A stretch of 64,000 nucleotides of DNA from Lytechinus pictus (lineage: Eukaryota), in the NCBI RefSeq assembly GCF_037042905.1, contig NC_087250.1, forward strand, positions 14,200,001 to 14,264,000, in the 5' to 3' direction. The stretch's first letter is position 1. Each line of letters begins with the position of its first letter. The notes beneath the pieces are model-generated. The model saw nothing but the letters and a program-made list of their open reading frames with translations. It did no database searches and was not told where the DNA came from. Below, one piece after another: positions 1-63,285 of this stretch. A program made the position numbers and the translations under genes.

Positions 1-238
1 AAATATTGTATTATTCAAACAATAAAAAGCAAAAGAAATAGTGAGTGAGTGACATCATCGACTCTCTCATTTGCGTATCACTGAGTTGAGCATAGAACTG
101 TTTTGTGAAAAATAAGCGAAACTTTAAAATGTCATAACTTTCTTATTTTACATCCGATTTTTATGAAGTTTTCAGCGTTATTCATGTTTGAGTTCTCTAT
201 TTATTCAAATCAACCTTTTTCTGGGGTGGACTTGACCT
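1..238. mobile_element. Right part of a TTAA-flanked (Kolobok-like) MITE, family A
   Basis: Ends GGGGTGGACTTGACCT + TTAA; homologous to 1120-1343 and 37770-37987. Confidence 0.75.
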
Positions 239-750
239 TTAAGATTTGAGAGGTATAAGGCCGTTCATTGGATAGAAGAGATTTCGCAAGCGCACGCAAG
301 CTTTGTTACACTTAAATACAAGTCAAAAATATGGTATAACTCGATCAAAATATCAACATCATTTCGCATTTGTAAACACCAGATGAAAGCGGAAAGTGCA
401 GTGCAATTTTTATAACAATAATGGTGATGTCTAAGAAGTATAAGACATGTCTTATAAATCATTAAATTTTACCAAAGTTTTAAGATAGTATTTTTTTATA
501 TCTATTTACCGTAATTATCATGATTATAGAGATATTATAGTAAAATGTTATTTTGTTTCTTAAAATTATGATATCATAAAAACACCAAAATATGAATGTT
601 TGTTGTACAATTCATTAGTACTTCAGGAAAACATTAGAAAACCTTTTTTTTCAAAAATGTTTAGTTATTAAAAAAATATATATATATTATCATAATTTTG
701 TGGGAAAGTTTGTTGTCACACCCATGGCATGATAATTATTTGTGTCTTAA

Positions 751-1343
751 ATGACAAGTCCACCCCATAAAAAGTTGATTTGAATAAAAAGAGAAAAAAT
801 CCAACAAGAATAATACTGAAAAATTAAATCAAAATCAGATGCAAAATAAGAAAGTTATGACATTTTTAAGTCTCGCCTTATAATTTTCACAAAACAGTTA
901 TATTCACATCCTGGACAGGTATGCAAATGAGGGGACTGATGACATCACTCACTATTTCTTTTGTAATTTATTATATGAAATATTGAATATTCCAATTTTA
1001 TCCCTGTTGTCCTGTGAAACAAAGTTTTGTTCCTCCCTGAACATATGGTATTAGCTTTGTTTTAAAATTTATGGTTCGATCAATTCGGTCCTTATTGTCA
1101 AATCTGTAAAAATTGAAATACATTTTATAATTCAAACAATATCATACAAAAAATGGAGAGTGAGGGACATCAACTCTCTCATTTGCATGTCTGAGTCGTG
1201 CATATAACTGTTTTGTGAAAAATAATGGAAACTTTGTAACTTTCTCATTTTACTTCAGATTTTGATGAAATTTTCACCGTTGTGCTTGTTAGAGTTTTTC
1301 GCTATTTGTAAAAATCAACAATTTTCTGGGGTGGACTTGTCCT
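751..1343. mobile_element. Complete TTAA-flanked (Kolobok-like) MITE, family A
   Basis: TTAA at 747-750 and 1344-1347; TIRs ATGACAAGTCCACCCC ... GGGGTGGACTTGTCCT with long imperfect inverted arms. Confidence 0.85.
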
Positions 1344-1736
1344 TTAAAAATGATATCATAAAAATGTCAAAATTAGGATGTTTCTGATTCATTTTTCAAA
1401 CATTTTTTTTAAACATTGGAAAAGCTTTTCTAAAAATAAGTTTTTTTTTAATATTTGAGAAGCATAATTATAATCATGACATTTCGAGAATGATGTTTTA
1501 TGTTATAGTCATATTCTACCAACATATATTTTTTTCACATAATGTATAACATTATAAAAACGATGATAGTAAAATGAATTTATTTCTTAAAAGATCAGAT
1601 GATGTTATATCATAAATATGTATTAAAACAATATTTTCTCTCTTTTTTTAGTGAAAATACTATAAAGCAGTTTCAGTTATGACATTCTTAGAACATTTGA
1701 TGTCATTGATATGATACTAGTATTACAACCTTTTAA

Positions 1737-2948
1737 AACTAGCACATCAATGATGTGGAGCTCATCCAGCATCTCGCAACGATATTTAACACAATTTTAA
1801 TTTCAGCCCAGTTGACGTCACTGTAGTGAATTATATTGGTGACATAAATTGAGGATATAGAATTGAAATTGATGAAGAAATTACATAGAAGCTTTTTTGT
1901 GATCTATGAATAAATTTTATCATAAATTAGCATAAATAATTTTCTAGTCAAAATTTCTAAACTCTGTGTAGAACCTTGGTGAACCTCATGTAGCTCTCAG
2001 ATGGAACAAAAATAATCAACAAATAAATAAGTTATTTTTTTGAGTTTTGAAAATATATAAATAAATTAGCATATTTAATGAGTTTCAAAATTCTGTGTTG
2101 AAATTTTGTATCACCACCTAAAGCGATCATATAAAACAAAGAAAATTAAAATTGATCAACAAATGATGTACAGGTTTGGTGAACCTCATGCAGATCTACC
2201 AGATGGAAAAAAAATCAAAATCGGTCAACAAATAAGACGCAATTCCTGTTGATTTATGAATACATTTCGCATATGATACAATTTTTCCTAGTCAAAATTT
2301 CAAAATTCTGTGTAGAAATTTGGTGAACCTCATGAAGTGCTACCAAAAGGAAGCCGAAATAGGTCAACAAATAACGAAGGAGAAGCATTTTTTGTGAATT
2401 TTGAATAATGCGCATAAATTAGCATATTTAATGAGTTTCAAAATTCTGTGTAGAAGGTTTGAATCCCCCACCTAATACTATCATATTAAAATAGCAAACA
2501 GAATTAAAATCAGACTTGAAATGACGAAGAGGCAGCATTTTGAAATTCAGTCAACAAATAAAGAAGAGGCATTTTCTGTGATTTATGAATTTCGCATAAA
2601 TTAGCATAAATAATTTCTACTCCGGCCAAATTTCAAATTTTTGTGTAAAAGTTTGGTGACCTTCATGAGGCTCTACCAGATGGAAGCAAACAATTCAAAA
2701 TCGGTCAATTAATTAAGAAGAAGCATTTTTTGTGAATTTTGAAAAATGCACATAAATTAGCATATTTAATGAGTTTCAAAATTTTATGTAGAAGTTTTGA
2801 ATCCCCTACCTAGTGCGATCATAATATAAAGCAAACAGAATTGAAATCGGACTTGAAATGGCCGCGAAGGAGAAGCATTTTGAAATTGTGGACGGACGCC
2901 ACGCCACGGCATAAGCTCATCTAGCCCTTCGGGCCGGATGAGTTAAAA
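1737..2948. mobile_element. Helentron-associated (HINE/Tsp-like) element, family 1, with internal tandem repeats
   Basis: Starts AACTAG, hairpin CACATCA-a-TGATGTG, sub-terminal AGCTCATCCAGC; internal repeats (aaattctgtgtagaa..ggtgaacctcatg..); ends GACGGACG, hairpin AGCTCATCTAGCCC-ttc-GGGCCGGATGAGTT, then an A run. Confidence 0.7.
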
Positions 2949-5089
2949 ATAGATCCCAATAACTTTATCAAAATGTCAGCAAAATACAAAAAAAATGTTA
3001 AAATTATACTACTAAAAATAAGGATGTTTCTAATACATTTATAAATATTTTTGGAAATTTTATTTCAAAAATGTTTTGTTGAACGGTTGATGTTATTGTC
3101 ATAATATTCGATCTTACAACATTTTTAAAATGTTTATTTTACATCAAATGTATAACCTTACAAAAATGTTAGTAGTATTATCAAGTTTCTGAAAAAAATT
3201 ATATTCATATCATCATAAAACATTGAAAAACATGTTAATGATATATACATTTAATTAACGCTTTTGAAAATTTTTAGGAAAACATTTTTTTCAAAAACGT
3301 GAAGTCAAAATGATACATAAACATATAGTTTCATAACATTTATTATCACATCCAATGTAGGTACATGTATATAACATTATAAAATTGTATATCTGTTTTG
3401 TTTCTCAACAATTTATGTTAAAATTATCAGGATGTTTCTATATATATTTTTTAAAGTTGACATTTTGGAAAACAATATTGAAAACATTTTTCAAGAATGC
3501 TTTTGTTAAAAAGTGTTGTAAAACCATGTTTCATATATCGATCATTTCATTTCAAGTATTCTAACAACATTTTCAAAATGCTATTTTTACATCCGATTCA
3601 TGTACATGTAGATGTCAATAAAATGTTATTGTGTTGCTATCAAAATGTTAATTCAATATGCAAAAACGGCAAAATTATCATGTATCTAATATATTTAAGA
3701 AAATCATAACATTATCAAAAATGTTTTGTCGAAATATTTTGAAAACAAACATTCATGACTTTTTTATCATCATCATGGTCATAACATCGAACGTTTGAAC
3801 AAAAAATATTCACATTAATTAAATGTAACATTATAAAAACGTTAGAAAAATATTAATTGTGTCTTAAGAATTTTTTTTTCATCAACTATGGGTAAACTTA
3901 GATCTATGTAACATTTCGGAAAATATATCTGCTTGGCATCATAATATTAACTTTTATTTCATGTTTAACATCAGGGGAATATTGTTTCATTAATGTTATA
4001 CAAATGTTCTTAAAAATTTCTTTTGAAAGCATTTCTAGGATCTTTCATGAATGTTATTATAGTTAGCTGGGTATGGACATGGATGTCCATAGTATGGAAT
4101 ACACTAGCTGCAAACACATGTATAACAAACCATGTCCAAACCATAGAGCTATATATAGCTCCATATACAAAAAACCACTGACTGCCCCTTATCATGGAGG
4201 TCAGGAGGTCATTTCATGGAAGCAACAGCGTCCTGGTTTTCGTAGTCTAGTCTTATAAACTGTAATACTTATTCCACGGATGAAATCATTGGGTAAGAGA
4301 AAAAATATTTCAATAGAACAAAATGTGAATATCAAATTATCATGGCGGTATATGTCTATTCTGTAGAACATCGGTCACATCTGTGTATTTTCATCGTCCT
4401 TGGGGGTAAACTTGTATTTGAGTGGAGGCAAAAGTTTGGTACAAGAGACTAGTCGTACCTGTAGGCCACTGGTCTGGTTTCCCCTGACCCTCCACTGCCC
4501 ATTGACCACGATGGGGCTGGGGGCCAGGATCCGTTGATCGCTGCCTGAGCCAGAGATGTTTACCAGCTGTTGCCTCCTTGTGACTGGTGTAGTCTACTTA
4601 TTCAAACTTTGATACTTGGTTCATGGGTGGAATCATTTGGCGAGAGAGGAAGGCGCTGAATAGATATTTTTTAAGTGCATGAACACGGAGCCTTATGTTT
4701 ACATTGTAAAAAAAAAACCACAAATTTGCATTTTTCACCCTGTTTGAGGTGAAGTTGTTTCGGGTAAAAATGTGTCTTGTTTGGTGTGTGAGACTAGGGC
4801 ACCTGACCCCCTACCGTGTAACTTGTTTGATTGATGCCTAGCTTTTCTGGTACAGCAAAGTTTTGTACTGGACCTTGTTGGGGAGGGAAGATGAGTGGAT
4901 TGGCGTTGATTAGAGATTGGGAGACATGTGCCCTCTATGTTAGCTTTGGGAAAAGGCACTTCCAAACAACAAGGTCCAATCTGGACTACGCACTATGCAG
5001 CTCAATCTCGATGAGCTGTGTGGGGAGCTTAGTGAGGGTGGGGTAGCAGGTGGCCAGATCTCACAAATAATAGCCAAGGCTGTGGACAC

Positions 5090-7978
5090 CCCAGGTAATA
5101 AGCCAACGTTGGCTGTACGTTGGAAACTTGAAAGTCGTTGGACGTTGGAAAAACTTGATGGATTAACGTTGAATCGAAGTTGGAAACTAGTTTGATGGAA
5201 AGATGATGGACAATCAACAATGACATGACATTGGCAACGTTGGAAACTTGTTGGAGAGATGTTGGACAGTCGACAATGTCACAACGTGTGAAACACGTTT
5301 TATTGGATAGTTGTTGAACAGCCTGCAAAGGCACAATGTTGGCAACGTTGGAAACTAGTTCGCTGGAAGTTGTTGAACAACCGACAATGGCACAACGTTG
5401 ACAAAGTTGGACACTAGTTTGTTGGAGAGTTGTGGGACGGTCGACAATGGCACAACGTTGGAAACACGTTTGATTGGATAGTTGTTGAACAGCCAGCAAA
5501 AGCACAACGTTGGCGACAATTTTGAACTTGAAGAATCTGGCAGAATTTGGACTGGATATAGACAATTAAACTCCTGAATATGTTGTGATCTGGAACAGTA
5601 CATATAAGCTGCATATTTAGGACCTACAATCTGCAGTGGAATTTTCTTTGCACTTGCAGATAGTCGGTAACTGCAACCGTTGATCCCCTCCGAAAGATCC
5701 CGGAGTCAGCTTCTGTGCGCGTACAGTCCGACGCTAGTCTTTTCGTGTAAGTACTTACACCAGTCACTGTGTGAGTGACTAATAGTAATACTAACCTCGC
5801 AATACGTGTGAGTGGGAACGAGTATGCGATACCAAGGGCAAGGCAACAGTCATTGGGTGATTTCAATAATTTCAAGTACAGTGTTGAAATCTGGTGTTGG
5901 TATTGTGACAACACCGTACTTGAATCAGGCTGGTGTTGAGATTGACCTCGGAAAATATGGTGTATTTCCGGCAGTTTGCGTTGAAGGCTGGTGTTAATTG
6001 TAATCTGCTGAACCCAACACTGCACTGCGGCTGCATGGTGCATGGTGTTGATGATCTACGTGCAATTTCCCCATTCAGCAACACCGACCCCCAGGGATTG
6101 GGAGAATCGTGATTTAAAGTTCAATGTTGGTGTTGATGAACTGTAGCTCACAAACAGGGGGTAAACACGACGAACCATCTCCGTAAAAGTATCTTTTACA
6201 TTTAAGATAAGAGCAAATCAATAGAGTTTTAATACATTTCAATGAAAAATAATATTACGCTTGGTGTTGGAGCTCAGTTCAGCAGCCCTTTCGCGCTCTC
6301 AACACCGTACACCGTACTTGAAATCACCCAATGACTTGCTACCTGGCATTCCTGCCTTATTTATTATACGCTGCCTTGAATTGACCTGGTCGGTCATGCC
6401 TGGCCTAGCCTGGACCGAGTGTTTTCCAACTGCAGTCAAACCTGTAGTAGCTACGTGAGGCATGCTTACACTTGACGCTGAAATATCATTTAAGAGTTAT
6501 GGCACGAGCGAGACTAGGTCATGGCCATGTATATTGAGATCTCAGTTGACTTCTATCTTAATCAAAAAGAGGTGCTCTTTAGTTACAGTAGGCAGTAGCT
6601 ACGTTACTCTGAGTGAGGCCAAGTTACGCGACCTCCTTTTTAGATTTTGTTAATACTGAGAGACTGCAATTACACATGTTGGCATTGCATACCGAGTCAT
6701 TAACAATTGTAGACAGAAACAGAGATTGCAACTCGCAAAAAAATGTAATACATCTTAATTCTTATTACATATGCATATGTTTTTTTGGTATTAGTCTTGT
6801 TTGAGAAAAAGAGGATGTCAAAAAAGTTTGACTGCTACAAAGGCCTCAATAAATATCACACGTAATTCTCTTGATTCCTCTTAATTATGTGAAGAGACTT
6901 GTAACAGAGAGAATGAAAAAAAATTAATGGCTGTAATAATAGTTGTAATGTTTTTTGACAGAATCATGAACAGGTTACAGATGATGAAGGCACAGTGTTG
7001 AAAACTGTTTGATGGAGATGGCGCATCGTTGGATTTGTTTAAAATTAGACCAACAAAGAATCAACGTTACAACAACATTTAACCGATATTAGACAAACAT
7101 TGAATCAACGTTTACGCCAACGTTGGACCAACATTGGACCAACGCTGCCATACCTGCCTCATCTGGACATAATGATTATGCACTCATGAATATTCATTAC
7201 ATCAGTAAATGACAAAGATTTTAGGTTATATTGCTATAATAATTAGAGTGTTTATGTTTATTCAATATTTCCACCATGAAAAATTTCAGAAAAGTATGTG
7301 GCTCCATTACCATATCATTTATAATCAAAACCTATTATTCTAAGTGAAATTTACAAGGTTAAGTGTGGAAAATGATATTAACTGTATTCTGTCAAGTATA
7401 GCAAAGTTGCTCTATATATAGGAGTCAATGACAGGATTCAGTGGATAGGTGTAGGATGATAGGAATAGGATGCAGGATTAGGATGTTGGATTTTAGGATA
7501 GGATAAGACATGATGATAAAAGAGTTGTAATGGTGGACTTCACATTGAAACCAATTAATGTTTTGTTAATATACTGCCATACGTTGGAATAACGTTGGAG
7601 CAACGATGTAACAATGGTGGAGCAATGTTGCCAGACAACGTTGGAGCAATTGTTGCTGGACAACGTTGAACCAACGTTGTAAACATAGTTGGACTGACGA
7701 TGTATGCACGTGCACGTCCATCGCTGCTTCAACGTTGCCCATCAACGTTGGAGCAACGCTGTTATTGATGACTCAGCCGACATTATACCAACGTTGGAGC
7801 ATTGATGGTGTCACCGTTGAACTGACGTTGGAAATGTTGTTGGTCTGACGATGTATAGACGTGCACTTCTATCGATGATGCAACGTTGCTTACCAACGTT
7901 GTAGCAATGTTGTATTTGACAATTTAGCCAACATTGGATCAACGTTGCCAGACAACGTTGGAACATTGTTGCTGGACA
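5090..7978. mobile_element. CCCAG-terminal DNA element with CAACGTTG sub-terminal arrays (EnSpm/CMC-like); right end lost at the LINE junction
   Basis: CCCAG at ~5090 followed by a CAACGTTG array (5100-5520); second array at 7060-7978 abuts the LINE. Confidence 0.5.
5838..6346. repeat. Inverted-repeat (MITE-like) insert with GGTGTTG motifs
   Basis: agtcattgggtgatttcaa..gtacagtgttga on the left is complementary to tcaacaccgtac..ttgaaatcacccaatgact on the right. Confidence 0.55.
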
Positions 7979-10900
7979 AGATTTTTTTGATAAAACTGTG
8001 ATAGGTATAATTTATAGGAAACCAAACACTGATATTGATCAGTTTCAAAGTAGCTTGCTTGGTGTTTTGGAAGAGGTTAATGTTGGAAAAACGAACATTG
8101 TACTTATTGGTGATTTCAATATAGATGCGTCTCAAACAATTAATCAAAAGGTACATGATTATTTAAGTATGATAGAAAGTATAGGACTTCAGCAGCTTAT
8201 CTCACCCCCCACCAGGGTGACTAATTCTACCTCATCAGTTATTGATCATTTTTATGCTAATGTTTATAATCATGCAATTCATTCAGGTGTTATCGAAACA
8301 GATGCCTCTGATCATTTTCCAAATTTTGTAATATTTGAAAGTAAGAATAAGAGTAAGAACGCTTTCATGAGGAAAGTTGCCCGATCCTACGAGTCATTTA
8401 ATATTCAATAATTTCATGAAGATCTTGGTAAAATCGATTGGGTACCTGTATTCAGACACAAAGAGGTAAATAGAGCATATGAAGTTTTTAATGACATGTT
8501 TGTGAAAGTGTGTGATAAACACGCACCTAACACAGAACACAATGTATCTCGTGAAGAGAATAGTCCCAAGAAACCGTGGATTTCATCAGCAATTATTAAA
8601 TGTATCAGGAACAAAAACAAACTGTTCAAAAAGTACCGGTCGTCGAATTTTAATGAAGAGTATGGGAATAAATATAAAAGGTATAGGAACACTTTGGTGA
8701 CAGTTATACAAATGCTAAGAGAATGTATTATTGCAATTACTTTGATTATAATAAAAATTATATGGGAAAGACCTGGGAAACTATTAAAGAGTTAATTGGG
8801 AAAAGTAAGGATAAAAATATGCATACTATTGAGGGGTTGGTCATTAATCGAGGTGGATTAGATACGATTGATACCTCAGGAAAGGATTTAGCCGAGAAAC
8901 TTAACGACTACTTTGTTACTGTTGGGTCAAATTTGGCAGAACTAATACCAAATGGGCTTCCTAATTCTTGTTTTAAAGATTATTTGGGTGCTTCAAATGA
9001 GATATCTTTATTTTGAAAACCCATAATGGAAGAGGAAGTTAAACATATTTTATGTACTTTAGATGCTTCAAAATCTCATGGGTATGATAATTTGCCAGTT
9101 AGATTGATCAAGGATGCAGCACCTTTCATTGCTTCTCCGTTGACTTATATTTTCAATTTATCATTAGAACTGGGCAAATTCCCAGATGCCCTAAAGGTAG
9201 CAAAAGTGACCCTCCTGTATAAAAAGGGTTCGAAGGATGACCCAGACAATTATAGACCCATTATAGTTTTACCAGTTATTGCAAAAATCTTTGAAAAATT
9301 AGTTAATATGCTTCTCATGTCCTTTCTAGAGTCCAGTGATATTTTGTATAGACATCAGTATGGCTTTCGTAAGAGATATAGTACAAAATTATCAGTAATA
9401 AATTTGGTAAACGCATTATTGAAGGCGATTGATATGGGTGAAATAACCATAGGTATATTTATAGATTTCAAAAACGTGTTTGATACAATCAATCATAACA
9501 TACTCTACGAAAAATTAAAGCATTATGGAATAAGAGGTATTGTATTGCAGTGGTTCCAGAAAAACTCAATGGACCGATCGCAGGTTTTATGTTACAAAGA
9601 TGAAATGCCCAGTAGTAGAAGGATAACATGTGGTGTTCCCCAAGGATCAGTCCTGGGGCCCACACTCTTTTTATTATATATTAATGACTTACCATGATCA
9701 ACTGATTTTTTCCAGTTTAGACTTTTTGCAGATGATTCAAATATTTTCCATACTTTCCCCAAATGTCAAAAAGATATTGATATGAACTATGTAAGTAAGA
9801 AATTAAAAGAGGTGTATAGTTGGTGTGTACTTAATAAATTAACCATACATTTGAAGAAAACAAATTATATGATAAAAGGACCAAGACGATCTATTGAAAT
9901 TGAAGGTGTATAGACTTTATGTGAAACAGTTATAGAAAAAGTACATGTGGCATCTTTTGTAGGAATTCAAATCGATGAGTCTTTGTTGTGGAAAAACCAG
10001 ATCCAATGTATTGATAAATGCATTAGGCGGAAAATTGGTTTGCTTTTTAAATTGCGTTACTATGTACCACGACATGTTCTAATGCTTTTGTATAAATGTT
10101 TTATACAACCACACATATCTTTTGGAATTGAAGTTTGGGGAAGTAGCTACAGGAGCCATCTAAATTGTATACATTTGGCGCAGAAAATGGCTATGAGAGC
10201 AATTACATTTTCTCTACTTAGAACAAGCTCTAGGCCACTATTCGTCAGTCTGGGGTATTAGATGTACATTTTCTCTACTTAGAACAAGCTCTAGGCCACT
10301 ATTCGTCAGCCTGGGGTATTAGATGTTTATGACTTGCATAAACTTGCAGTATCAACATTTGTTTATGATTTACACAAAGAACATTTACCACATTCTGTAA
10401 AGCAATACTTTGAGTTGTTAAATCATAGTTACAAAACCAGAGGCAGAGAACATTCCATGCTGAGACTCCCCAAATGTAACACTACACATGGCATTTTTTC
10501 TATATCTTTTATTAGAGCAAAGTTTTGGAATAGTTTGCCCCAGAGTATTCGAGAGAAAAGAACACGGTTTTCATTTTTTAAAAATCTGAAAAATTACTTA
10601 ATTAATGAAGATTGATGATTGATATGAGCTTGGAAAAAAATAAAATAAAACAAAGTTGTTTTAGGAGAGTAGATACATTGCACTTTGATCATTTTGGGAA
10701 ACCATTCTCGACTAGCACAAGTGCTAACTTTTGGTTCTCCCTTTAACAGCATTTCATTTGGTACAAAATCACTCATACCATGTATAATTTATGTTCATGC
10801 ATACAATCATTTTTTATGGTGATTTGGTTCTTGTCAAGTGAAACTGCATCAAGACAAACCACATGATGTTACTCTCTTGTATTATATGCTGATATCACAT

Positions 10901-11052
10901 GCGGTATCATATTGTGTTTTTATTTAGACTATGCTTATGTTATGTTATGACTTGCATTTATATGATTCATGTTATACAATCACATTCTTGTAAATATGTA
11001 TATTCATTCATGTAAATATGTTAATGTTGTTAATAAACTCAACTCAACTTAA
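7979..11052 (+). mobile_element. 5'-truncated CR1/L2-group LINE; ORF2 (APE endonuclease + reverse transcriptase) broken by stops and frameshifts
   Basis: EN motifs IYRKP, LIGDFN, PTRVT, SDHFP; KPWIS; RT motifs NYRPI, QYGFR, FDTINH, GVPQGSVLGPTLFLLYINDLP, then FADD after a stop; C-terminal WNSLP; 3' UTR ending AATAAA plus (ACTCA) repeats. Confidence 0.95.
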
Positions 11053-11212
11053 CGGCTCAAACCATGTTATCTCACAGAACCATCAGTACATAAACCACAA
11101 CAAAACATAGAAGATGAAGAAGCAGTGGCTTGATTTGAATGGATTTTCATCTCTATTGACACAAACAAAAGAATCATGTTCTGTATTGACCCTCCATGAC
11201 TATTTCTACTCT

Positions 11213-11600
11213 TTTTGCAGCTTTTCAAGTCAGACCTCATCCAACACTTTTGAATCATGCTCTTTTTGTGACGGCGTGATCATAACAAGCGTGGTATCAT
11301 TTTAAAGAGAATTAAATGATCTTTTGAATGATGTCAAATATGCATTGTGTAAAATTGGGAGTTGGGAGAAATTAATGGCCAAACTTAGATTTCCAAACTG
11401 TTTTTGCTCGTTTTGCAGCTTTTCAATTCAGACCTCATCCAATACTTTTGAATCCTGCTCTTATCATGATGGCATGATCATAACAAGCATGGCATCATTT
11501 TAAAGAGAATTAAATGATCTTTTGAATGATGTCAAATATGCATTGTGTAAAATTGGGAGTTGGGAGAAATTTATGGCCAAACCAAGATTTCAAAACTTTT
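11213..11600. repeat. Two-copy 198-bp tandem repeat, followed by a (TTC)n/pyrimidine tract at 12045-12170
   Basis: tttgcagcttttcaa..aaattgggagttgggagaaatt recurs at a 198-bp offset. Confidence 0.8.
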
Positions 11601-12419
11601 TTGAGGGGTTTATATATATATGTATGTAGTGTAAAAAAGGTCATTGACCTTTGACCTTGAATTTTATGGGTAAATGTAAGTATTTAATTTTTATTATTTG
11701 AACTTCTTGTAAGAATCTGTGCATTTTGAAACCAAGATCACCAACCTGTTACATTTTATCTGGGTGATACCATTATATAGTACATTAAAAAAGGTCATTG
11801 ACAATTGACCTTGGAAAAAAGCACTTTCTCCAGCCCGTATTTTTCCTACCTTTTTTTTGGTAAATGTTGACACCCATACCTACTCAAATCAGTTGAAAAA
11901 AACATTTCCAATAATTTTATCCCAGATGATCACTAAATACGGGAAACTAGACCACTTTGTTCGAATTACTCGATAGCTCCTCAACCACATTTCATTTTGT
12001 ACATGTATATTACTTATTGATGTCTTTGTGAACGATATATCATTTCTTTGCCTTCGTCTTTCTTCTTCTTCTTCTTCCTCTTTCTTCTTCTTCTTCTCCT
12101 TGTTCTTCTTCTTCTTCCTTTTCTCCTTTTTCTCCTTTTTTTCTCCCTCTCCTCCCTTCCTCATCATCTTTCAGAAAGTGATTCTTTTGTAATATTTTAT
12201 TGATCCTTCTGTTCATAATAACATATTTTTTTATTGTTCTTTAAACACTGGTTTTCACACGTTTATCATGCCAATTGTATATTATGTTCCACACGGCCCC
12301 AATGGAAATCTGTCTGTGAACTGGTGGGCTTTTTAATCGTGTATAAATAAAATCAATCTTATCAATCTTATTTAAATACAATACACACTCCTCTTCATTA
12401 ATTCATTTGCAAAGACACA

Positions 12420-12932
12420 GGACGTGCTCTCAATCAACATAATATTCGTTTGTAGGTCCGAAAAGTGGAACTATTTATCTTCAGACGTTAGAAATTCACC
12501 ATCTTTGAATTCTGTTTCTGTTTCTCTTCATGGTAACACACGTTGGAACTCGACAGGACAGCTTTTGCTAGCAAACGCCAAGCTGGTATTTACTCCAAGA
12601 CAAATCTTAAGAAAAAAAAAACTTACGTCCGGTCCCTAAATTGAGTGGTTTCCTTAGTTTCTGTTGTAGGATGACTGGTTTGACGATTTATTAACTGTTT
12701 CATTTGATATAATGTATAATATTATGTTTTTGTTTTCATTTTGCTTTTCCCCTTGTTGTGTAATGTACTTTGCATGGATAAGGGTTTTTTCATGCATTAC
12801 GTCTTTATTGTCTATTTGCCACTGTGTACTCGTCACAAGCTCTGCTTACTTCGTTGCCACCTCCACTGAATTGTTATCTTTTTATGCTTTTATCTCTGGA
12901 AATAAATGTTGAATTGACCTTGAACTTGAATA
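12420..12932 (+). mobile_element. Old CR1/L2-type LINE 3' fragment
   Basis: KWNYLSSDVRNSPSLNS resembles the CR1/L2 ORF2 C-terminal WNxLP..IR.S.SL.SFK motif; ends AATAAA plus a ttgaa/ttgac tail. Confidence 0.5.
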
Positions 12933-12967
12933 AATTGCAAGCAAATTTGGGCAAAATCTTATCTGAC

Positions 12968-13120
12968 CTGATCTTGGCTCTTTTTAGGGGGTAATCCTTC
13001 AATCTGTTCTCTGATAAAATCGAGATCCTGTTTGTCCAATCCATTCTCCTCCAGTTCAGTACTAACTAATTGATTTTTCTCGATCAGATGATCAAACATC
13101 AGTACAGATAGATTCTCATG
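12968..13120 (-). CDS. SAMHD1: SAMHD1 coding exon 7, 153 nt
   Basis: gaacAG acceptor; HENLSVLMFDHLIEKNQLVSTELEENGLDKQDLDFIREQIEGLPPKKSQDQ; donor cagGTCAGA (3' boundary slightly less certain). Confidence 0.92.
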
Positions 13121-13316
13121 CTGTTCAAGGGGAAAAATAAATGGAGGAAATAATAGTGAAGCGGTTCAGTCCCTTGACTCTGAAACAAAGAATTAGGGGT
13201 TCAAGTTCAAGTATTTCGACCGACCATACTTTTGGCAAGAGTAGGATTTATAAAGTCATACATACAGGCGGATCCAGTGGGGGGGGGGGGACCTTCTATT
13301 AGTGGAGCAAAAAAAA

Positions 13317-15462
13317 AACAAGTGGAGCGCCTCTGGCAGTCTCATCTGCATTGCGCAATTCAATAGCAGAAGTGCTGACTTTAAAAACTACTATGAAATA
13401 ATAATTCACAAAAAACACCATTCGAATAATGATACGATAGTACGTTCATTGACCCTAAATGACATTTGACCTTGATCATGAGACCTAAGACTTGTCAGTA
13501 ATACTTGATTACCCGTATGTCTACATTTCATAAACTTTATTAATAAACTTTGAAAGTTATGACAGCAATTTAATAATTACCTCTAACTTTAAATGACCTT
13601 TGACTTTGCTCATGCGTCTTGAAACTCGAACAAAATGTTCAGTGATACTTGATTACTATTATGTCCAAGTTTTATGAAGTAGATCCATACACTTTCAGAG
13701 TCATGATGGTTATTAAACAAATACCCCCAACATGGCCAAAGTTCATTGACCTTAAATGACCTTTGACGTTGGTCGTGTGACCTAAAACTCACCCAGGATG
13801 TTCAATAATACTTTATTACTCTTATGTCCAAGTTTCATAAATCAGATCCATAAACTTTCAAATTTATATGATAGTAATTCAACAAATACCCCCAACTTGG
13901 CCAAAGTTCATTGACCTGAAATGACCTTTGACCTTGGAAGTCGCACAGGATGTTCATTGATAGTAATTACTCTTATGTCCAAGTTTTATGAGCTAGGTCC
14001 ATATAAATTTGAAGTTATGATGACATTTCAAAAACTTAACCTTAGTTTCAGATTTTAAAGATGATTCCGCCAACTTGGTCTAAGTTCATTGACCCTAAAT
14101 TACCTTTGACCTTGATCATGTGACCTGAAACTCAGGTAGGATGTTTAATAATACTTAATTAAGCCTATGTCTAATTTTCATGAACTAGGTCTATAAACTT
14201 TCTAAGTTATGCTGTCATTTGTTTTAATGTTGACCTTGCCGCCGCCGTCGCCGCCGCACAGTGGGCCAGAATGAGTTTGAAAGTGTGCCAAAATTATATT
14301 CCGTGTTATTTTTTTTACCTTTAACAATTTGATTAGGGGTAATTTGAGGCGTAGAATCGACTGAACATAATTTAAAGCCGATATGACGTCACCTTGATAC
14401 CAAATTTTGATTGGCTACTTAAACCTATCTGTGAAAAGATGAATTACGCTAAACAGTGTGTAGTTTATAAACTCTTTGTTACTTTAAGATTGACCTGAGT
14501 GAATGTTGGTTGATGCTTTTCAAATGCCTAAAAAAGTGTGTATGAGATCCTGAAAAAATTATATGGCATCAAAATGATCATCAAATAAAGAAAATAAAAA
14601 AAATCTGAAAATATTAACCGTGCTGTCATCTCTCTGAGAGGGTTTTTGGCTGAAAAGCTTCTACAAGTAACTTTTATCTCTGGAAGAGGGTTAGGTAGCC
14701 CTTATATGCGTTATCAACCTTCATTTTGCCTACATTATGCCCGGAATTCATGTCATTTTCATGGAATTGAAGGAGAATCGACCTCGCCGTGCAAAAATGA
14801 ACGACAATATGTATGCCCCATACGGTGCGCTGCGATGACTGTGCGGTATAAACATGATAAAAATGACCGTTTGGGGGGAGTGATGTGTCAAGTAAAAGCG
14901 GCTCTAACATAAAAACGGGCAAAAACAGACAGCTAAATTTGGTATCAACTTAAAGCTTAGACATCGGGAAAAATGATGCTGTTAGAATTTAGACGGAAAT
15001 CCAAATGTTTATAATGTAATTGCAAAAAACGTGGATTATCAGCCTATTTTGAGAAATAATTTTCATATAAACTACCTTAGAGCTGTCTTTTATCTAATTT
15101 GAACCCTTTCACAAAAAAGATCATGATTATGTAGGAGCCATTTCAGATTCCTACATGAAAAACTTCATGTGAAATGGCCTGTTTTCAACTTCAAGGTTGT
15201 AATATACCTGGCATTTCGCAAAATGTCGCATTTTACGATTTGAGGTAGGAAATTATAAACAACCTTTATGCAAATTCCCGAATGGAATATTTTGCGGAAG
15301 TATTCTTTAAAGTGTTGTCTTTCAGCTGGGCATGACAAAAATCTGAAATTGCCCAAAATGAATTTTGGCGCACTTTTGTTTCGCACCGACCCACATGACT
15401 TTGCGCCGCCGTCGGAAAAGCGGCGCCTACAGTCTCACTCTGCTATGCAGGTGAGACAAAAA
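13317..15462. mobile_element. HINE/Tsp-like element, family 2, with ~165-bp tandem repeats; host of the Transib-like insertion
   Basis: Starts AACAAGTGGAGCGCC..GTCTCATCTGCA; repeat unit ttcattgaccctaaatgacctttgaccttggtcatgtgacc..; ends (GCC)n, hairpin GTCTCACTCTGC-tat-GCAGGTGAGAC, then an A run. Confidence 0.8.
14257..15403. mobile_element. Non-autonomous Transib/RAG-like transposon with RSS-like termini
   Basis: Left end CACAGTG; 5-bp TSD CGCCG (14252-14256 and 15404-15408); inner block AAAGTGYGCCAAAATT inverted at both ends; splits the host's (GCC)n tract cleanly. Confidence 0.75.
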
Positions 15463-16576
15463 TGGGGGAAGTCTCATCTGCATTACGCAATTCAATATAG
15501 CAGCAGTACTGACTTTGAAAACTACTATAAACAGCCATTCCATTGTGACTAGCGTGACATTTACACTAAATTTCAACTTCTTAAGGTTGATAACTTGAAA
15601 ATCGTATATTGCACACTTCTATTTATTTCAATCAAAGTATTGATAATACACATTGTTTACAAAAAATATTGAATTTACAGTCGTTTTTGTAGGAGATATT
15701 TCAATTTGTTTGTTGTGACTCGCGTGACGCGACACTATTTAAGATTCCTGACCTTATTCTATTTGTCTGTATTTTCCTAAGAAGATACCAGACTTTGTTA
15801 AAATTTTCTGAAAACATCTGAAAATAATGTTAAAAATTAATTGACGCCTGACTTATTGTTTTGAGTCAATTGGCATTTGAAAATGTTACTCGCGTGACAC
15901 AGGAGTGTGACTCGCGTGACAAGTATCTTTTTTTTACTACAAATAAAAAAAAAAATCACGATTTTATACAGTAAAATGGGCCGAATTTCATTCAAACAGA
16001 ACACTTATGGTCATTTGCATCCCCTGTATCTTTAAAAGAAAGGAATTTTAAAGTCACGCTATAAATATTACATGAAAGTTAACATGCGGGACTACATATT
16101 GTAATCCCACATGCGTTATTAATAGCATTTAACAACGTTTTTCTTAATGAAAGTAATAATTCAGGCCTAAAAAATTGACATCTGCCTTAAGAATTGCAAT
16201 CATTATCCCTTTTCCCAAAAATATTGTTCATTTTGTGGTATGTGACTCGCGTGACGTACCCTAAAAAACCTTTATATGACTCGCGTGACGGCACTTTAGG
16301 GTGTTTTTTCATAATGAAGGGGTCTCCAGTTGGCAATCTTCTTTACTGGTTCGATTTAGGACTATTTGCTCCTTACTTTTTATCAACTACAAATTATATT
16401 GCGTAATACTTTTTAAGTAAACTAAACTATGGATGTATTTTTGTGACTCGCGTGACACCTTTTCGAGGGTGTTTTTAACTTGAAATATTGTCAAGCTCGA
16501 AAAAGTGCAAAAAAGAAAGTGATGTTAGAATGGCTATAAGATTTGACAGAATAAAATAAATTGTGAATCTACAGAC

Positions 16577-19246: not shown

Positions 19247-20154
19247 TTTACAGACAACAGAACACACTTTATTAGTGTCATTAAAAAAAGTTTTAAAAAA
19301 CCCATACTTTTCATGCAAAGTTGGCATCTCTTAAGGGTCGTGTATCTCGCTCATTTGTAGGTGAAAGGCAGTGAAAAATCAGATTTTACATCCTTTGGAC
19401 ATGTATTTAGCCAATCATACATGTAGATATTCTTCATTTATTGGTTTAACTTGAGATTTGAATCCCAGGGTGTCTAGTTACATGGAATGGCTGTAAAGTA
19501 ATTATTCACAAAAAACACGATTCATATAATGATGTAATACTATGTTCATTGACCCTAAATGACATTTGACCTTGATCATGTGGCGTAAGACTTGTCAGTG
19601 ATACTTATATATAGTTATATATATATGTGTGTGTGTGTGTTCATAAACTTTCAAAGTTATGACGGCAATCTAAAAAAATTACCTCCAACATGGCCAAAGT
19701 TCATTGACCTTAAACTACCTTTAACTTTGGTCATGTAACCTGAAACTCGTACAGGATGTTCAGCGACACTTGATTACTCTTATGTTCAAGATTTATGAAC
19801 TAGATCCATACACTTTCAGAGTTATGATAGTAATTTAACAAATACTCCCAACATGGCCAAAGTTCATTGACCTTTGACCTTGGTAATGTGACCTGAAACT
19901 CGCATAGGACGTTTAGTGATACCTGATTATTCTTATGTCTAAGTTTAATGAACCAGTTCCATAAACATTCAAAGTTATAATGGTAATTCCACAATTGTCC
20001 CCAACTTGGGTAAAGTTCATTGACCCTAAATGACCTTTGACCTTGGTCATGTAACTTGATATTCAGTAATACTTCATTACTATCATGGCCAGATTTCATG
20101 AACTAGGTTCATATACTTTCTAAGTGATGATGACAATTCAAAAACTTTACCTTA

Positions 20155-22960: not shown

Positions 22961-23122
22961 AAGATTCTGATATTGATTCCCCCCAACATGGTCTAAGTTC
23001 AATGACCCTAATAAAATGACCTTTGACATTGATCATGTGACCTAAACCTCAAGCAGGATGTTCAGAAATACTTGATTAACCATTTTCTCAAGTTTCATGA
23101 ACTAGGTCTACATACTTCTTAA

Positions 23123-23706
23123 AGGGGAATGAAACTTTTAGAACATGTGGACTTGTGTGGAAACAGAAAAATCAAAGAATAAGAACATAGAAAATTTGAC
23201 GAAAATCGGACAAATAATGAGAAAGTTATGAGCATCTGATTATTGCGATCACTAATGCTATGGATATCCTCCAATTGGCAATGCGAAAAAGATGCGTGAT
23301 GTCACATGTGAACAACTTTCCCTGTGATGGACTATAACATTCCCATAAATTGTCTCTTTTTGCTCCTTCTCATGGTGATACAAACTCTTTATTCATAATT
23401 TATTCTGTGAAAATCTGTATTACATGCCCTCCTATAGAAAGAATACATGATCTACTGATAGAAGTGATAAAAAAGGCAGTTTAAGTGTAATACATACAAA
23501 AGTAATGGGAAAGTTGTTCACATGTGTCATCACACATCTTTGTTGCATTGCCAACTAGAGGATCTACATTACAATAATGATCTAAACTTCAAATGCTCAT
23601 AACTTTCTTGTTATTTATTCAATTTTTCTCAAAATTTCATTGATCCGTTTCTTTGATTTTTTCTGTTTTCACACAAGCTACTTAGTTCCAAAGGTTAAAT
23701 TTCCCT
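23123..23706. mobile_element. TTAA-flanked (Kolobok-like) MITE, family B, second copy
   Basis: TTAA at 23119-23122 and 23707-23710; homologous to 17426-18008. Confidence 0.85.
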
Positions 23707-25575
23707 TTAAGTTATGCTGTCATTTTTCAAAATTTAACCTTCGGTTAAGATTTGATGTTGACGCCGCCGTCGGAAAACCGGCGCCTATAGTCTCGCTCTG
23801 TTATGCAGGCGAGACAAAAAGAAGGAAAAAGAAGAAGAGGAAGACGAGTGAATAAATTCTAATATGATGACGTAATGTCCCGGTCCTATGTAAATAGTAA
23901 TAATAATGAAAAATGTCAGCTCTTTATTATTAAGTGCGATCCATATCCACCTCATAATTATCCTACAAAGTGCTTGAAACCTAGAATTTGGATTGACCCT
24001 TTTCAGATCGGAATTTGAAATATTTTGTACTCGCGCTTCGAGCACGCTTTACTGATTTTCATGATAAACAGTTTTAGAATGCCTAGAGTTTAGGTCTAAA
24101 TCTGAAAAATGCGCACGCATGTTTATTCAGATACGCAGCTTGTTCTCTATTTAAATCATTGTCCCGTTCCAGATCAGAATATCGAAAGAGAAATCTGCTC
24201 GCATCTGCTCTCGCATTATATCCCCCAATTATTCATCCGTTTCATGATTTACAAAACATGAATAGAGTGTCCCGTTTTTATGTCTAAATCTAGAATTTTT
24301 CCGCACGCGCTTCGCGCTCGCATCGATTGTTTAGTTATTAACCTATCCTGTTCGCGATTACAAAATGTGCCTAGAATTTCCATTCTCAATGTAGAAATGT
24401 CAAAAAGTTTCAGCTCACGCTTTGCACTCGCTTTATTTGATTGTTATTTAACATCCCCATGGCTACTTCAAGCAGTCCTTAAAGCTCCCTCACACTTGAC
24501 CGAATGTAGGCAGACGAAGGGTGACGAATGGGAAAAAGTGTTATTACATTTGTGGGCGTTATTACATTTGTGGGTGCAACAGCCCCCCAAACAAAAATTC
24601 GTTCGGCCGCCCTTGCCTTTCTATCCTCATAACAATTGAACAGCAACGGTATTTCTCCCCCCCCCCTCACCACCACACTTGCCCTTCCTCTTCTTTCCCG
24701 GTTTTCATTTTTTGGATTAACGAACATTTGGAATAACGAATCTTATTTCGTTTTCGGATTATCGAACCTTTGAAACAACGAACCTTATTTCGTTTTCGGA
24801 TTAACGAACCTTCGGAACAACAAACCTTATTTAAATACTTGATTAACCATTTTCTCAAGTTTCATGAACTAGGTCTACATACTCTTAATTTATGCTGTCA
24901 TTTTTCCAAATTTAACCTTCGGTTAAGATTTGGTGTTGTTGACGCCGCCGCCGTCGGAAAACCGGCAAAAAAGGAGGAAAAAGAAGAGGAGGAAGACGAG
25001 TGAATAAATTATAATATGATGACATAATGTCATTAGAATGTCCCGGTCCTATTTAAATAGTAATAATAATGAAACATGTCAGCTCTTTATTATTAAGTGC
25101 GATCCATATCCACCTCATAATTAACCTACAAATTGCTTGAAACCTAGAATTTGAATTGACCCTTTTCAGATCGGAATATGAAATATTTTGTACACGCGCT
25201 TCGAGCACGCTTTATTGATTTTCATGATAAAAACGTTTTAGAATGCCTAGAGTTTAAGTCTAAATCTGAAAAACGCGCGCGCATGTTTATTCAGATACGC
25301 AGCTTGTTCTCTATTTAAATAATTTCTCTTTTTTCCTGATGAAGCCCTATGGGCGAAAATTTGATCTAACTTTTCTCTCTACGGTTGTTTTATTCACCTT
25401 GTATTTTGCTTTATACTACCACAACCGACGCAGGACCTTCATTTTTATATATTTATATATATATTTATATATTTGTTTATATATATGCCTACCATTGTTC
25501 TCTTCATCCATTTCTTTCACAAAATATTTAAATGAAAGAGTTGCCAAAGCTGTTATACATGTAAAATATCACACA

Positions 25576-27149: not shown

Positions 27150-27220
27150 CTTGAGTTTCTCCTCGAGTCCGAAGGAAGGAATGACGAATGAGTCAAACAC
27201 ATGGGAAAAAGGACCATGAC
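27150..27220 (-). CDS. SAMHD1: SAMHD1 coding exon 6, 71 nt
   Basis: actAG / aagGTAAAT; (G)HGPFSHVFDSFVIPSFGLEEKLK. Confidence 0.96.
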
Positions 27221-28151
27221 CTAGTGTTGAATAAGAATAACAATACTAATAATAGTGTATCATTAAAGGTACACATTCTATCTATTTACCTATTCAAAGA
27301 AGACAAATAAAAAGAATATAGCCTAAAATTGTCAGTGAGGTTTTAACTTGTAACCGACTCAAACAAGACTCGATAAGATTTATTCTCAGGAGCTGGAATT
27401 AAGTAAGCACAGTGCGATCAAAGAAGCACAAAAGTTAATATTTTGTTTCTGTAGTCCATCTGTATGGGATATTCTAACAATGTCGGAGAAGCTGAGACAC
27501 CGCAGAAAAGCAATACATTAAAAAAAAAATACGGAAATGTCGAGAGAGGATGAGAATGAAATCACTGATCTGAATGCCGCCACATAGAAACGGTATCTTC
27601 TTTTTAGAATATTGTTTATCTACTCCCGTTTAAGGAGATGTATTGAGCACACGCATTAATACAATAATTCTAGCTTGATAAGATTCTTCTAGTTTCTTTA
27701 CGATTTCTTTGAGGAGTTCCCACTTGAGACCTCATAATATTAAAGGTAAAATACATTTCACATAATTTCATAAATATGTAAAGCAAGATCAAAACAGGCA
27801 TAAACATATTTGATTTACAATTACAGCAGAATTACAATAATATTGTACAGGGGTGGGAGTAACCACATTGAAATAGCTGAAGGTTTTGTACCTACAGGCA
27901 AAGTACACTTATTTGCATAATTTATTAATTTTAAAAAATATGAAAGATGATTTTGGAAAAAAATTACAACTCAGATTTGTAGTCCACATCCGGCTTTACA
28001 CGCGTGGCACTTTTCACGGCGATCATTGTCGAAATATCAAGGGGGTCATTTGACACACCTCCCCCAGTAAAAGCCTGGTCTCATATAGCCCAGTTGAAAT
28101 AGGGTGAGAGGGTTGACTAACCCAACAAAATTTTTTAGAAATTATTATCAC

Positions 28152-28927: not shown

Positions 28928-29088
28928 CCTAGTGAGTGTTCAAATCTATTGTGTGCTGCTCCTGGGAAGACAAAGTAGCAACAGCCAAGTTGCTTGATGA
29001 AGCGTAGTCTCTGAAACTGTGGGGTATCTATGATTTTGACCAGCAGAGGGCAAAAGTCAATGTGGCCATGAACTGAGTCGTTGAAAAC
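28928..29088 (-). CDS. SAMHD1: SAMHD1 coding exon 4 (allosteric-site region, start of HD domain), 161 nt
   Basis: ctctcAG / [59 protein letters not shown](G), the hallmark SAMHD1 sequence. Confidence 0.97.
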
Positions 29089-30491: not shown

Positions 30492-32543
30492 CAGGGCCGT
30501 AGCTAGAGGGGGGGGGGGGGTATGGGGGGTGTGACACCCCCCCCCCCAACATTCATGGCAGTCGGCAAAATCATGTACCAGTTGGCAAAATGGAGGATAG
30601 GGGAGAAAAAGAAAGAGGGAAAGAAAGGAAGAGAAAAAAGACAGGAGAGAGGGGGAGAGAAAGAAAGAAAGAAAGAAAGAAAAAAAGGAAAGAAAAATAG
30701 GGGTACTAACTTCGAAGAAGGTTACGACATATAGAATAAAGACAACCAGTTGGCAAATCCAAGTCCATGTAGCCAGGCTTAGAGCCCTACTATAGTCAGC
30801 AAAATACAAAGGACAAAACAGATGGAGCTATAATAACACACAAAGTAAGCCCCCGGTCCTCCCCCAATATAAACAAGCTTGTGAGTTTGCAAATTATACC
30901 ACAATTATTGACGATTTAACAAACACATTAGTTTTTTAAAATTAGAGGCAAGACTATAGGTAAAGAAATATGGGGGGATGAATTTCCAAGGTTTAAGGTG
31001 AATAATCAAAGCCAAAGTATAGTTGGCAACTTATAAAGTGGGCCTCATAATGAAGTGGCAGAACACGAACCTGTCACAAACACGGTGGACAGCAAGGGCA
31101 GAATCAATCAGAGCAGTATGGTCGTCATATGAAGCCATTCTAAAAGCTTTGGAAGAAATCACAACTTCTGCAACCCCTACCGACAGGCAGTTGGGTGCGC
31201 AAGCTTCAGGTATACTAAAGAAGATGAAGACTTTAGATTTCATCATATCGCTGATGTTTATGAAGAACGTGATGATGAAAACAAGCAATCTCGCTGAATC
31301 ACTCCAGAAGGAAGATTTAAATATCATAGATGCTCTGGAGCTAACAGAATCAGCTTTCACGTCACTTGAGCGCTTGAATGGTGACACCAATGCCATGGAT
31401 GCTCAAATTCAGGCTGCATGCACCTATGCCAGGAAATTGGACATTGATCCAGAGCAGGACTACCAGAGGCACCATCGCGTTAGACGCCCACCAGCAAGGC
31501 TTGATGACGCTCCTCACACTGCAGCAGCATTATCACTCCATGCATTCTACAGGAAAGAGTTCAAGAGCGTATTGGATACACTGATACTGCAATTCAGGAG
31601 AAAATGCAGCCAACACTTGACAAAGTGAAGCAAATGTCACGTTTGCTCTTGCCTCCAACGCCAGCATGCAACTCCAACTATGGCAGATGTTGTTGACTTT
31701 TGTAAACTCTTTCCAAAAAGAAGTGGATCACGAGGCATTGAAAGTGGAACTAGAATGCTTCCATGACATGGCAGTGGCAAGAGATCTGCAAAGTGTTGCT
31801 GACGCAGTCACTATGGCATTTGACAAGAAGTCTATTCTTCCTCTCACTTGGAATGCTTACAAGCTTCTCATGACAGCACCAATAAGTGTTGCAAAGGATG
31901 AACGCGCCTTCAGCCATATAAAGTTTAATAAGAACTTTTATAGATCAACCATGGGAGACCGGCGACTGGACAACCTGCTACTCCTGAACTGTGAAAAGGA
32001 CCTTATAGATACTGCCGACTTAAATCGCTTGCTAACAACTTGGTCATCAAAACCAAGACGTTAAATATGATATAGAATAACATACAAGATAAAGGTAACT
32101 TCAATAATTTCTGTAACATTTTTAATGGCTGAAAGAGATACATGTTAGCAGTAGCACTCTTGAAATTTTAGTTGAGACATCTTGCACAGAAGGTCAATTA
32201 AAAATTAACAAATCTTTGATGTTGATATTATTAATGCATAGGGTATATCATTATACTGCAAGTTAGCAACTACGGCACACTAGCCTTAAGTTTATATTTT
32301 GATCCAAAATGTTTATTTTTACAGTGCAAAAATCTTTGTATATCTTTGTATAATTCACCAAATGCCACTAATTCAATTCTAAAAATTCAAAATCTTTTAG
32401 CATGTGATTAATGTAGGGGGGTGGGGGCACATCCCCCATCAGACTCCCCCTGTGCTCACGTTGGCGCTGCACGCCAAATTTAGTTGGCAAATTTAGCTGG
32501 TACGCCCCCCCCCCCCAACAAAATGCTTCTGGCTACGGCCCTG
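30492..32543 (+). mobile_element. Internally deleted hAT transposon (2052 bp)
   Basis: TIR CAGGGCCGTAGC; perfect 8-bp TSD TCCTTACG (30484-30491 and 32544-32551); sub-terminal GTTGGCAA repeats; transposase remnant inside. Confidence 0.93.
31066..32064 (+). pseudogene. C-terminal half of a hAT transposase (ZMYM1/PRKRIR-like group), frameshifted
   Basis: LSQTRWTAR (hAT TRW motif) and the dimerisation-domain motif LLMTAPISVAKDERAFSHIKFNKNFYRSTMGDRRLDNLLLL lie in two frames; N-terminus missing. Confidence 0.9.
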
Positions 32544-34583: not shown

Positions 34584-34626
34584 TATTGTCAAATCTGGAA
34601 AATTGAAATATGTTATCATTCAAAAA

Positions 34627-37600: not shown

Positions 37601-37763
37601 ACGCTCCCCTGATTACCCTTATGTCCAAGTTTCATGAAATAGGGTCATATACTTTCTAAGTTATGATGACATTTTTTTTAAACCTGACCTTCGGTTAAGA
37701 TTTCAATGTTGACGTCGGAAAAGCGGCGCCTATAGTCTCGCTCTGCTATATGCAAGTGAGAAA
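34627..37763. mobile_element. Third family-2 HINE copy, interrupted at ~35229-37611
   Basis: Family-2 left end AAGTGGAGCGCCTCTGGAAGTCTCGCCTGC, repeat units, and terminal hairpin at ~37735-37760. Confidence 0.75.
35243..36378. mobile_element. MITE with ~90-bp inverted arms
   Basis: GTACCGG..TATTTACACCACTGCTCCGCCAAAA is inverted with TTTTGGCGGAGCAGTGGTGTAAATA..CCGGTAC. Confidence 0.7.
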
Positions 37764-62619: not shown

Positions 62620-63285
62620 AGGATACTACTGTAAACCCCTATGATGATATGTTACAAAAAAAATTCTCACTGAACCATGAACATACTTTAACAAAATTTT
62701 GTGTGGAGTGGCTAAATGATGGATTATAAAATTTTGATAAACACCTCCAACATGGCCAAAGTTCATTGACCTTAAATGACCTTTGACTTCGGTCATGTGA
62801 CCTGAAACTCGCACAGGATGTTCAGTGATACTGGATTACTCTTATTTCTAAGTAATATGAATCAGATCCATAAACTTTCAAAGTTATGATGGTAATTCAA
62901 CTAATACCCCAAACTTGGCCAAAGTTCATTGACCCTAAATGACCTTTGACCTTGGTCATGTGACTTGAATCTCAGGCAGGATGTTCAGTAATATTTGATT
63001 ACCCTTATGGCCAAGTTTCATGAACTAGGTCCACATATTGTTAGTTCCCCCAACATGGTCCAAGTTCATTGAACCTAAATGGCCTTTTATCTTGGTCATG
63101 TGACCTGAAACTAAGGCAGGATGTTCAGTAATACTTGATTCCTTATGTTTAAGTTTCATGAACTAGGTCCATATACTTTCTAAGTTATACTGTCATTTCT
63201 AAAACTTAACCTTAGGTTAAGATTTAATGTTGACGCCGCCGTCGCCGTCGGAAAAGCGGCGCCTGTAGTCTCACTCTGCTATAAA
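62620..63285. mobile_element. Fourth family-2 HINE copy (right part)
   Basis: ~165-bp units plus gccgccgtcgccgtcggaaaagcggcgcc; terminal hairpin truncated. Confidence 0.75.

Follow-up and report, generated by a model that had tools for sequence, protein, structure and literature searches.

A damaged non-autonomous element in a sea-urchin SAMHD1 intron, very probably an ordinary Transib with essentially symmetric ends

The window analysed here, by which we mean the whole stretch of 64,000 nucleotides, carries SAMHD1-like exons on its minus strand. TBLASTN searches with four SAMHD1-like proteins gave exon matches at 57164-57063 (one query), 29094-28927, 28266-28138, 27224-27150 and 13156-12968, and the 53-amino-acid exon at 28930-29088 (minus strand) reached 94% identity with the SAMHD1-like proteins of both Strongylocentrotus purpuratus and Lytechinus pictus, no other value among the best 120 of 1788 matches being higher, which makes the host a sea urchin. 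Because the minus-strand exon matches at 27224-27150 and 13156-12968 flank the insert that is the subject of this work, the insert is placed in an intron of ~14 kb, which agrees with the SAMHD1 intron location proposed in an earlier reading of this DNA from its letters (hereafter, the sequence-only reading). SAMHD1 exons beyond residue ~265 were not found in the 13 kb that follow the last exon match (window 1-12968); the missing exons may lie outside the window, or this gene copy may be partial. Elsewhere in the window, at 7920-10615 (plus strand), lies a LINE-type retrotransposon that is broken but still shows domains of an endonuclease and a reverse transcriptase.

The insertion site is the GCC microsatellite of a HINE-type repeat within the SAMHD1 intron. 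This host repeat is built like the HINE/DINE-1-like elements of PMC4067079: it has inverted repeats of 13 bp in sub-terminal position (13339-13351 and 15445-15457, 12/13 identical), internal tandem repeats, the GCC microsatellite and a 3' hairpin. Four other copies of the repeat in the window contain the GCC tract without the insert. The repeat is present in high copy, with other copies near 19500-20150, 22970-23820, 24830-24970, 34620-35230, 37610-37760 and 62740-63280, and a truncated 5' piece of another repeat copy (15467-15531) directly follows the host copy. The features of the locus are:

12968-13126, minus strand: SAMHD1-like exon downstream of the intron (TBLASTN match 13156-12968; acceptor approximate)
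13318-15462, plus strand: host repeat interrupted by the element, HINE/DINE-1-like; outer limits approximate
14252-14256, plus strand: left copy of CGCCG, a probable 5-bp duplication of the target site (TSD), inside the GCC microsatellite
14257-14293, plus strand: left terminal inverted repeat (TIR), intact, with CACAGTG, a GGCCAG block, a variable middle and a AAAGTGTGCCAAAA block; spacer 23
14294-15362, no strand: interior, non-coding and multi-copy, differing from related contigs by ~12%; homology to metagenome locus L008 in its right half
15363-15394, minus strand: right TIR, corresponding to family-type TIR positions 5-36, with a spacer of 22 when read in the homologous register
15395-15403, minus strand: right terminus, probably damaged, with 9 nt (CAAAGTCAT) where related TIRs have 4 nt (CACA); lacks 5'-CAC
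15404-15408, plus strand: right copy of CGCCG, probable 5-bp TSD
27150-27224, minus strand: SAMHD1-like exon upstream of the intron (TBLASTN; limits approximate)

Read letter for letter, the insert is 1147 bp long (window 14257-15403). Its left end is CACAGTG + 23 nt + GCCAAAATT on the forward strand, and both this end and the length stand exactly as they had been given in the sequence-only reading. The right end, as written in this copy and taken as its reverse complement, is CAAAGTC + 27 nt + GCCAAAATT, and it also carries ACAAAAGTG, which matches the nonamer of the recombination signal sequence (RSS) at 6/9 positions, 12 nt past ..ATGTG. The two insert ends are joined by a 16-nt inverted repeat at 94%, which exceeds chance expectation and also matches published and independently found TIRs. 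No match at the cut-off was obtained for 10 ORFs of the element region in Pfam, and no RAG1 or RAG2 remnant was found inside the element; Rfam gave no match over the whole window, and a second copy of the element was not found within the 64-kb window. The element also contains a perfect 14-bp internal inverted repeat, TTGATACCAAATTT (14394-14407 and 14935-14948), which may be a candidate transposase-binding site.

Transib elements in general are described as having ends like RSS23, TSDs of 5 bp and targets rich in GC (Kapitonov and Jurka 2005, PMC1131882), and the RSS likeness seen here is thus a published superfamily hallmark. The closest comparison in that source is TransibN1_SP of S. purpuratus, which has a symmetric 36-bp TIR of the form CACAGTGGGCCAG - 9 nt - AAAGTGCGCCAAAA with a spacer of 22 (PMC1131882, Fig. 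S4g); among its 11 published copies, by eye, 10/11 have a CGNCG 5' flank and 8/11 a perfect 5-bp TSD, which is CGCCG in 2 of those (PMC1131882). In the element studied here, the left TIR starts with CAC and has a conserved second block ~22-23 nt further on, and the right TIR is of the same type over positions 5-36. Compared by eye with TransibN1_SP, the first 13 nt of the left TIR are identical and the left end agrees at 26/27 block positions, whereas the right TIR agrees at 26/32 over positions 5-36; the 14-nt inner block agrees at 13/14 positions on the left and 14/14 on the right. The two also share the CGNCG target, with CGCCG among the published copies, a sea-urchin host and the lack of coding capacity. 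They differ in length (558-992 bp in the published copies, n = 11, vs. 1147 bp here), in the 9-10-nt middle of the TIR, and in the right terminus, which is damaged here. We do not file the element as TransibN1_SP itself, because the two were compared by their termini only and this copy is longer than the 11 published ones; its family may be a sister family of TransibN1_SP. The published sea-urchin TIR type supports the claim of the sequence-only reading that this is a non-autonomous element of the Transib superfamily, one that has RSS-like ends with CAC at the termini and a target that is GC-rich and 5 bp long. Taking this together with the evidence on the right end given below, we consider it very probable that the element is an old, damaged, ordinary non-autonomous Transib copy with essentially symmetric TIRs of the TransibN1_SP type (~36 bp, spacer 22 ± 1).

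The target site was read previously as a 5-bp GC-rich TSD, CGCCG. These letters do stand on both sides of the insert, but the flanks are a GCC microsatellite, which is compatible with a duplication of 2, 5 or 8 bp, so that the length of 5 bp is taken from the CGNCG target of the family rather than from this copy. An 8-bp duplication, CGCCGCCG, compatible with the flanks, would suit a hAT-type element, and a broken hAT transposase with a C-terminal dimerisation domain does occur elsewhere in the window (31023-32064, plus strand, in the long SAMHD1 intron upstream). The 8-bp fit, however, follows from the GCC repeat. Moreover, hAT elements are described as preferring AT-rich targets and as having TIRs without a second conserved block (PMC1131882), whereas the target here is GC-rich, the second TIR block is present, and the TIR agrees with that of a Transib family already published, whose targets are CGNCG and 5 bp long. 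A hAT origin is therefore extremely improbable.

A pattern scan of metagenome contigs that specified the canonical terminus and allowed spacers of 21-24, a pattern unable to match a 27-type end, identified 8 loci (L001-L008), of which 8/8 have a spacer of 22 and 5/8 a CGNCG flank. These 8 loci comprise ~4 end types, and 5/8 come from one assembly; given the canonical pattern and the few end types, they show the register of the TIR and not the absence of asymmetry. Their ends share CACAGTGGGCC(A/G)G - 9 nt - AAAGTG(C/T)GCCAAAA. One locus, L008 (1-526, minus strand), is homologous inward over ~490 bp to the right half of the element (window 14860-15403) and has an intact TIR; it is 76% identical to the element over 66 nt (BLASTN; z = 9.1 against shuffles), and L004 and L008 share 87% identity over 364 nt. 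Among the 14 comparisons of internal sequence (7 loci by two ends, L003 being too short), the right side of L008 gave z = 9.1, the left side of L005 5.6, the right side of L001 3.6 and the right side of L002 3.4, and the remaining 10 stayed under 3; we accept L008 alone as clear. The TTGATACCAAATTT motif is present in L008 too, at the homologous place. The ORFs of L001 and L004 (2/8 loci) include no long frame. A looser TIR pattern, with longer spacers and any terminus, gave 0 matches in genome_contigs and 0 in viral_contigs, collections of prokaryotes and viruses that are uninformative on this family. As metagenome contigs also carry this TIR type together with its CGNCG target, the Transib lineage concerned may be widespread or horizontally moved.

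Comparison of the element with these 8 related TIRs bears directly on the spacing of its two ends. The left TIR matches them at 12-13/13 positions of the first block and 13-14/14 of the inner block. The right end matches at 9-14/36 positions in the 27-nt register and at 21-25/32 when shifted by 5 nt, and in the shifted register the right spacer is 22, which gives 23/22 for the two ends. Because the shifted register fits far better, we read the right end as an ordinary TIR with a spacer of 22 whose first four bases have been replaced by nine, and the 23/27 asymmetry then appears to arise from reading the right end out of register. As letters, CAAAGTC + 27 nt is present as previously given; as a homologue of the left heptamer it fails, since the true register lies 5 nt further in. 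Likewise, the 12-nt-spaced nonamer at the right end does match at 6/9 letters, but it is the TIR's own AAAGTG block. Both ends carry this AAAG block as well as the GCCAAAA block; at the same nonamer position the left end achieves 3/9 and the 8 related TIRs 3-5/9, and a score of 6/9 to the nonamer at 12 ± 1 nt is attained by 65/1454 GTG sites in the window (4.5%).

We further compared this copy with contigs from 4 public sequencing runs (4 of 16 runs listed; one organism, 3 studies), placed on positions 14150-15530 at 80% likeness. All 30 bins were covered in 4/4 runs, and variant sites inside the element had as many as 70 contigs each, contig depth not being taken as copy number; the element is a multi-copy, interspersed, non-coding family. 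Divergence from this copy is 6-17% among the 32 listed pieces and 12.4% when they are pooled; as the runs share 5-13% of the stretch's words, and their organism may be a different individual or belong to a related species, a divergence of 12% may overstate the age of the copy. One base of the left spacer, at position 14276, is absent from 33, 42, 32 and 46% of depth in the 4 runs, and 54-68% of depth lacks this 1-nt loss, so that a one-base 23/22 spacer difference may be common. At position 15362, another base is found in 99% of depth, which indicates that the GCCAAAATT at the right end is not the family's sequence. At position 15400, within the odd terminus, depth was 0, 47.9, 68.6 and 0, compared with 35,000-99,000 at position 15362, 38 nt inward (0-0.2%). 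The listed sites (40/319 variant sites and 12/126 indels) do not include the right terminus of the family, and the privacy of the right terminus of this copy rests on missing cover, since contigs show presence and not absence. This terminus starts with CAA, not CAC, and we read it as damage because it is nearly absent from the related contigs. Joints from 14257 to 15404, with 18-20 nt on the short side, were considered as an empty allele and set aside, as they most likely represent other host-repeat copies.

A family whose ends are truly asymmetric (23/27, or overlapping 12/23) and recognised as a pair, like RSSs, ProtoRAG and the 12/23 Transibs, would leave the spacings as they are written in this copy; Transib and RAG-like (RAGL) TIRs with asymmetry are known (PMC1131882, PMC10629977, PMC8355894), and the family's right terminus is not among the listed variant sites of the related contigs. 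The 27-nt reading, however, misaligns the GTGGG block (9-14/36 vs. 21-25/32) and lacks CAC, the right terminus is uncovered in 2/4 runs and reaches ≤0.2% in the other 2, and base 15362 of the right 'nonamer' differs in 99% of depth. A 12/23 reading needs a different block to be picked at each end, as both ends have both blocks. The published 12/23 Transibs (Transib5, Transib2_AG and TransibN1-3_AG) resemble the element in the CAC heptamer, the GC-rich TSD, probably of 5 bp here, and the RSS-like second block, but their own consensus ends are RSS12 vs. RSS23 (PMC1131882), whereas here the same blocks stand at both ends at 22-23 nt. Spacer asymmetry was not found to be conserved across copies, as judged from terminus depth, the left 1-nt loss and the register, with the right end judged from missing cover; no description of an asymmetric echinoid Transib was found in the searches of papers. 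We regard asymmetric family ends as highly improbable. The RAG-like spacer asymmetry proposed in the sequence-only reading thus finds no support in 23/22 ends with an odd right terminus that is nearly absent from related copies, and the evidence agrees with the alternative that had been offered beside it, namely that the right end is decayed and carries a private indel.

The element might also be a non-autonomous offshoot of a RAG1L-RAG2L (RAGL/TransibSU) transposon, and its ends would then be the TIRs that searches around the RAGL genes of echinoids have never found. Sea urchins have RAG1L and RAG2L genes without identified TIRs (PMC4411706; for echinoids, PMC9885083 reports none identified around the RAGL genes), RAGL elements likewise end in CAC and have TSDs that are GC-rich and 5 bp long, and some of them are non-autonomous (PMC10629977, PMC7204232). 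As described, RAGL TIRs have an A-rich block, TR2, after the heptamer at positions 8-10 (PMC7204232, PMC10629977), the starfish TransibSU-1_PM starts with CACAGCGAAAAAT (PMC4411706), the spacer asymmetry of ProtoRAG is 27/31 (PMC8355894), and echinoderm RAGL TIRs are reported to have no conserved nonamer (bioRxiv 10.1101/100735). An A-rich TR2 was not found at either end of the element, where GGCCAG and GGTCGG follow the heptamer position instead. The element resembles the RAGL transposons (ProtoRAG, TransibSU-1_PM and PflRAGL-A, as published) in its CAC terminus and its GC-rich, probably 5-bp TSD, and differs from them in having GG(C/T)C at both ends in place of the A-rich block, no RAG1L or RAG2L sequence or remnant inside, and no family-wide asymmetry. 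In addition, Kapitonov and Jurka, working with a partial genome, reported that the flanks of sea-urchin RAG1-like sequences had no similarity to non-autonomous elements (PMC1131882). A RAGL origin is accordingly most improbable, and because TR2 and conserved asymmetry were both looked for and neither was found, we do not file the element as RAGL or as an asymmetric Transib.

The autonomous partner is instead likely to be an ordinary Transib. Against a RAG-like asymmetry, the sequence-only reading had itself named symmetric TIRs tied to an ordinary Transib; a symmetric sea-urchin TIR of the same type is indeed published and the odd right terminus is nearly absent from related copies, which goes most of the way. 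Transib1_SP, a sea-urchin autonomous element of 4132 bp with one 676-aa transposase and the TSD CGGCG (PMC1131882), shares with the element a CGNCG-type target and a sea-urchin host, and is a plausible kind of partner, a pairing suggested by these features. Transib transposase is described as binding both TIRs and producing a 5-bp duplication in GC-rich DNA (PMC1131882). By this route, a single-ORF Transib transposase from an autonomous element elsewhere in the genome would have bound both TIRs and cut at their CAC ends, and this copy would have entered a CGCCG site through a cut staggered by 5 bp. The right terminus differs from related TIRs by a gain of 5 nt and the loss of CAC, a decay that presumably came after insertion. 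Since 5'-CAC is described as vital for cleavage by RAG-family enzymes (PMC7204232), this copy is probably immobile now, and probably dead.

The 9-nt terminus could have come about through a substitution together with an insertion, or it could be a scar left by repair that copied DNA close by. The true right end might have been truncated at ~15394, with the last 9 nt derived from the host or copied during repair, and with the 1147-bp length and exact TSD partly coincidental. The 9-mer resembles sub-terminal sequence at 15358-15367 and the left flank at 14230-14238, and, given the 15362 variant, it is, by eye, one edit from the family letters at 15358-15367, a closeness reached in 2.5% of random trials. 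Against the letters of this copy, however, each of the two matches is two edits away, a closeness attained by 29% of random 9-mers, so that an origin of the 9-mer by templated repair is not significant on these letters; and a substitution plus a 5-nt insertion keeps the perfect CGCCG duplication without extra events. We consider the truncation unlikely; it is in any case a variant of the best explanation, and it leaves the family assignment unchanged.

That this CGNCG-targeting TIR family is moved by echinoid RAG1L-RAG2L, or has right ends truly unlike its left ends, we hold to be very unlikely. If true, the RAG1L-RAG2L reading would supply the missing DNA substrate of the sea-urchin RAG-like proteins, and TIRs found to flank RAG1L-RAG2L in an echinoid would matter much more than the present element, as the natural substrate of these proteins is described as not known (PMC10629977, PMC9885083). 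As an ordinary Transib, the element is one more decayed non-autonomous copy in a sea urchin, of a kind whose TIR type and target were reported in 2005, and by itself it matters little. The occurrence of the same TIR type and CGNCG target in metagenome contigs, one of them with ~490 bp of internal homology, is a side result of modest value. The case shows that an RSS-like asymmetry can be read into a single damaged copy.
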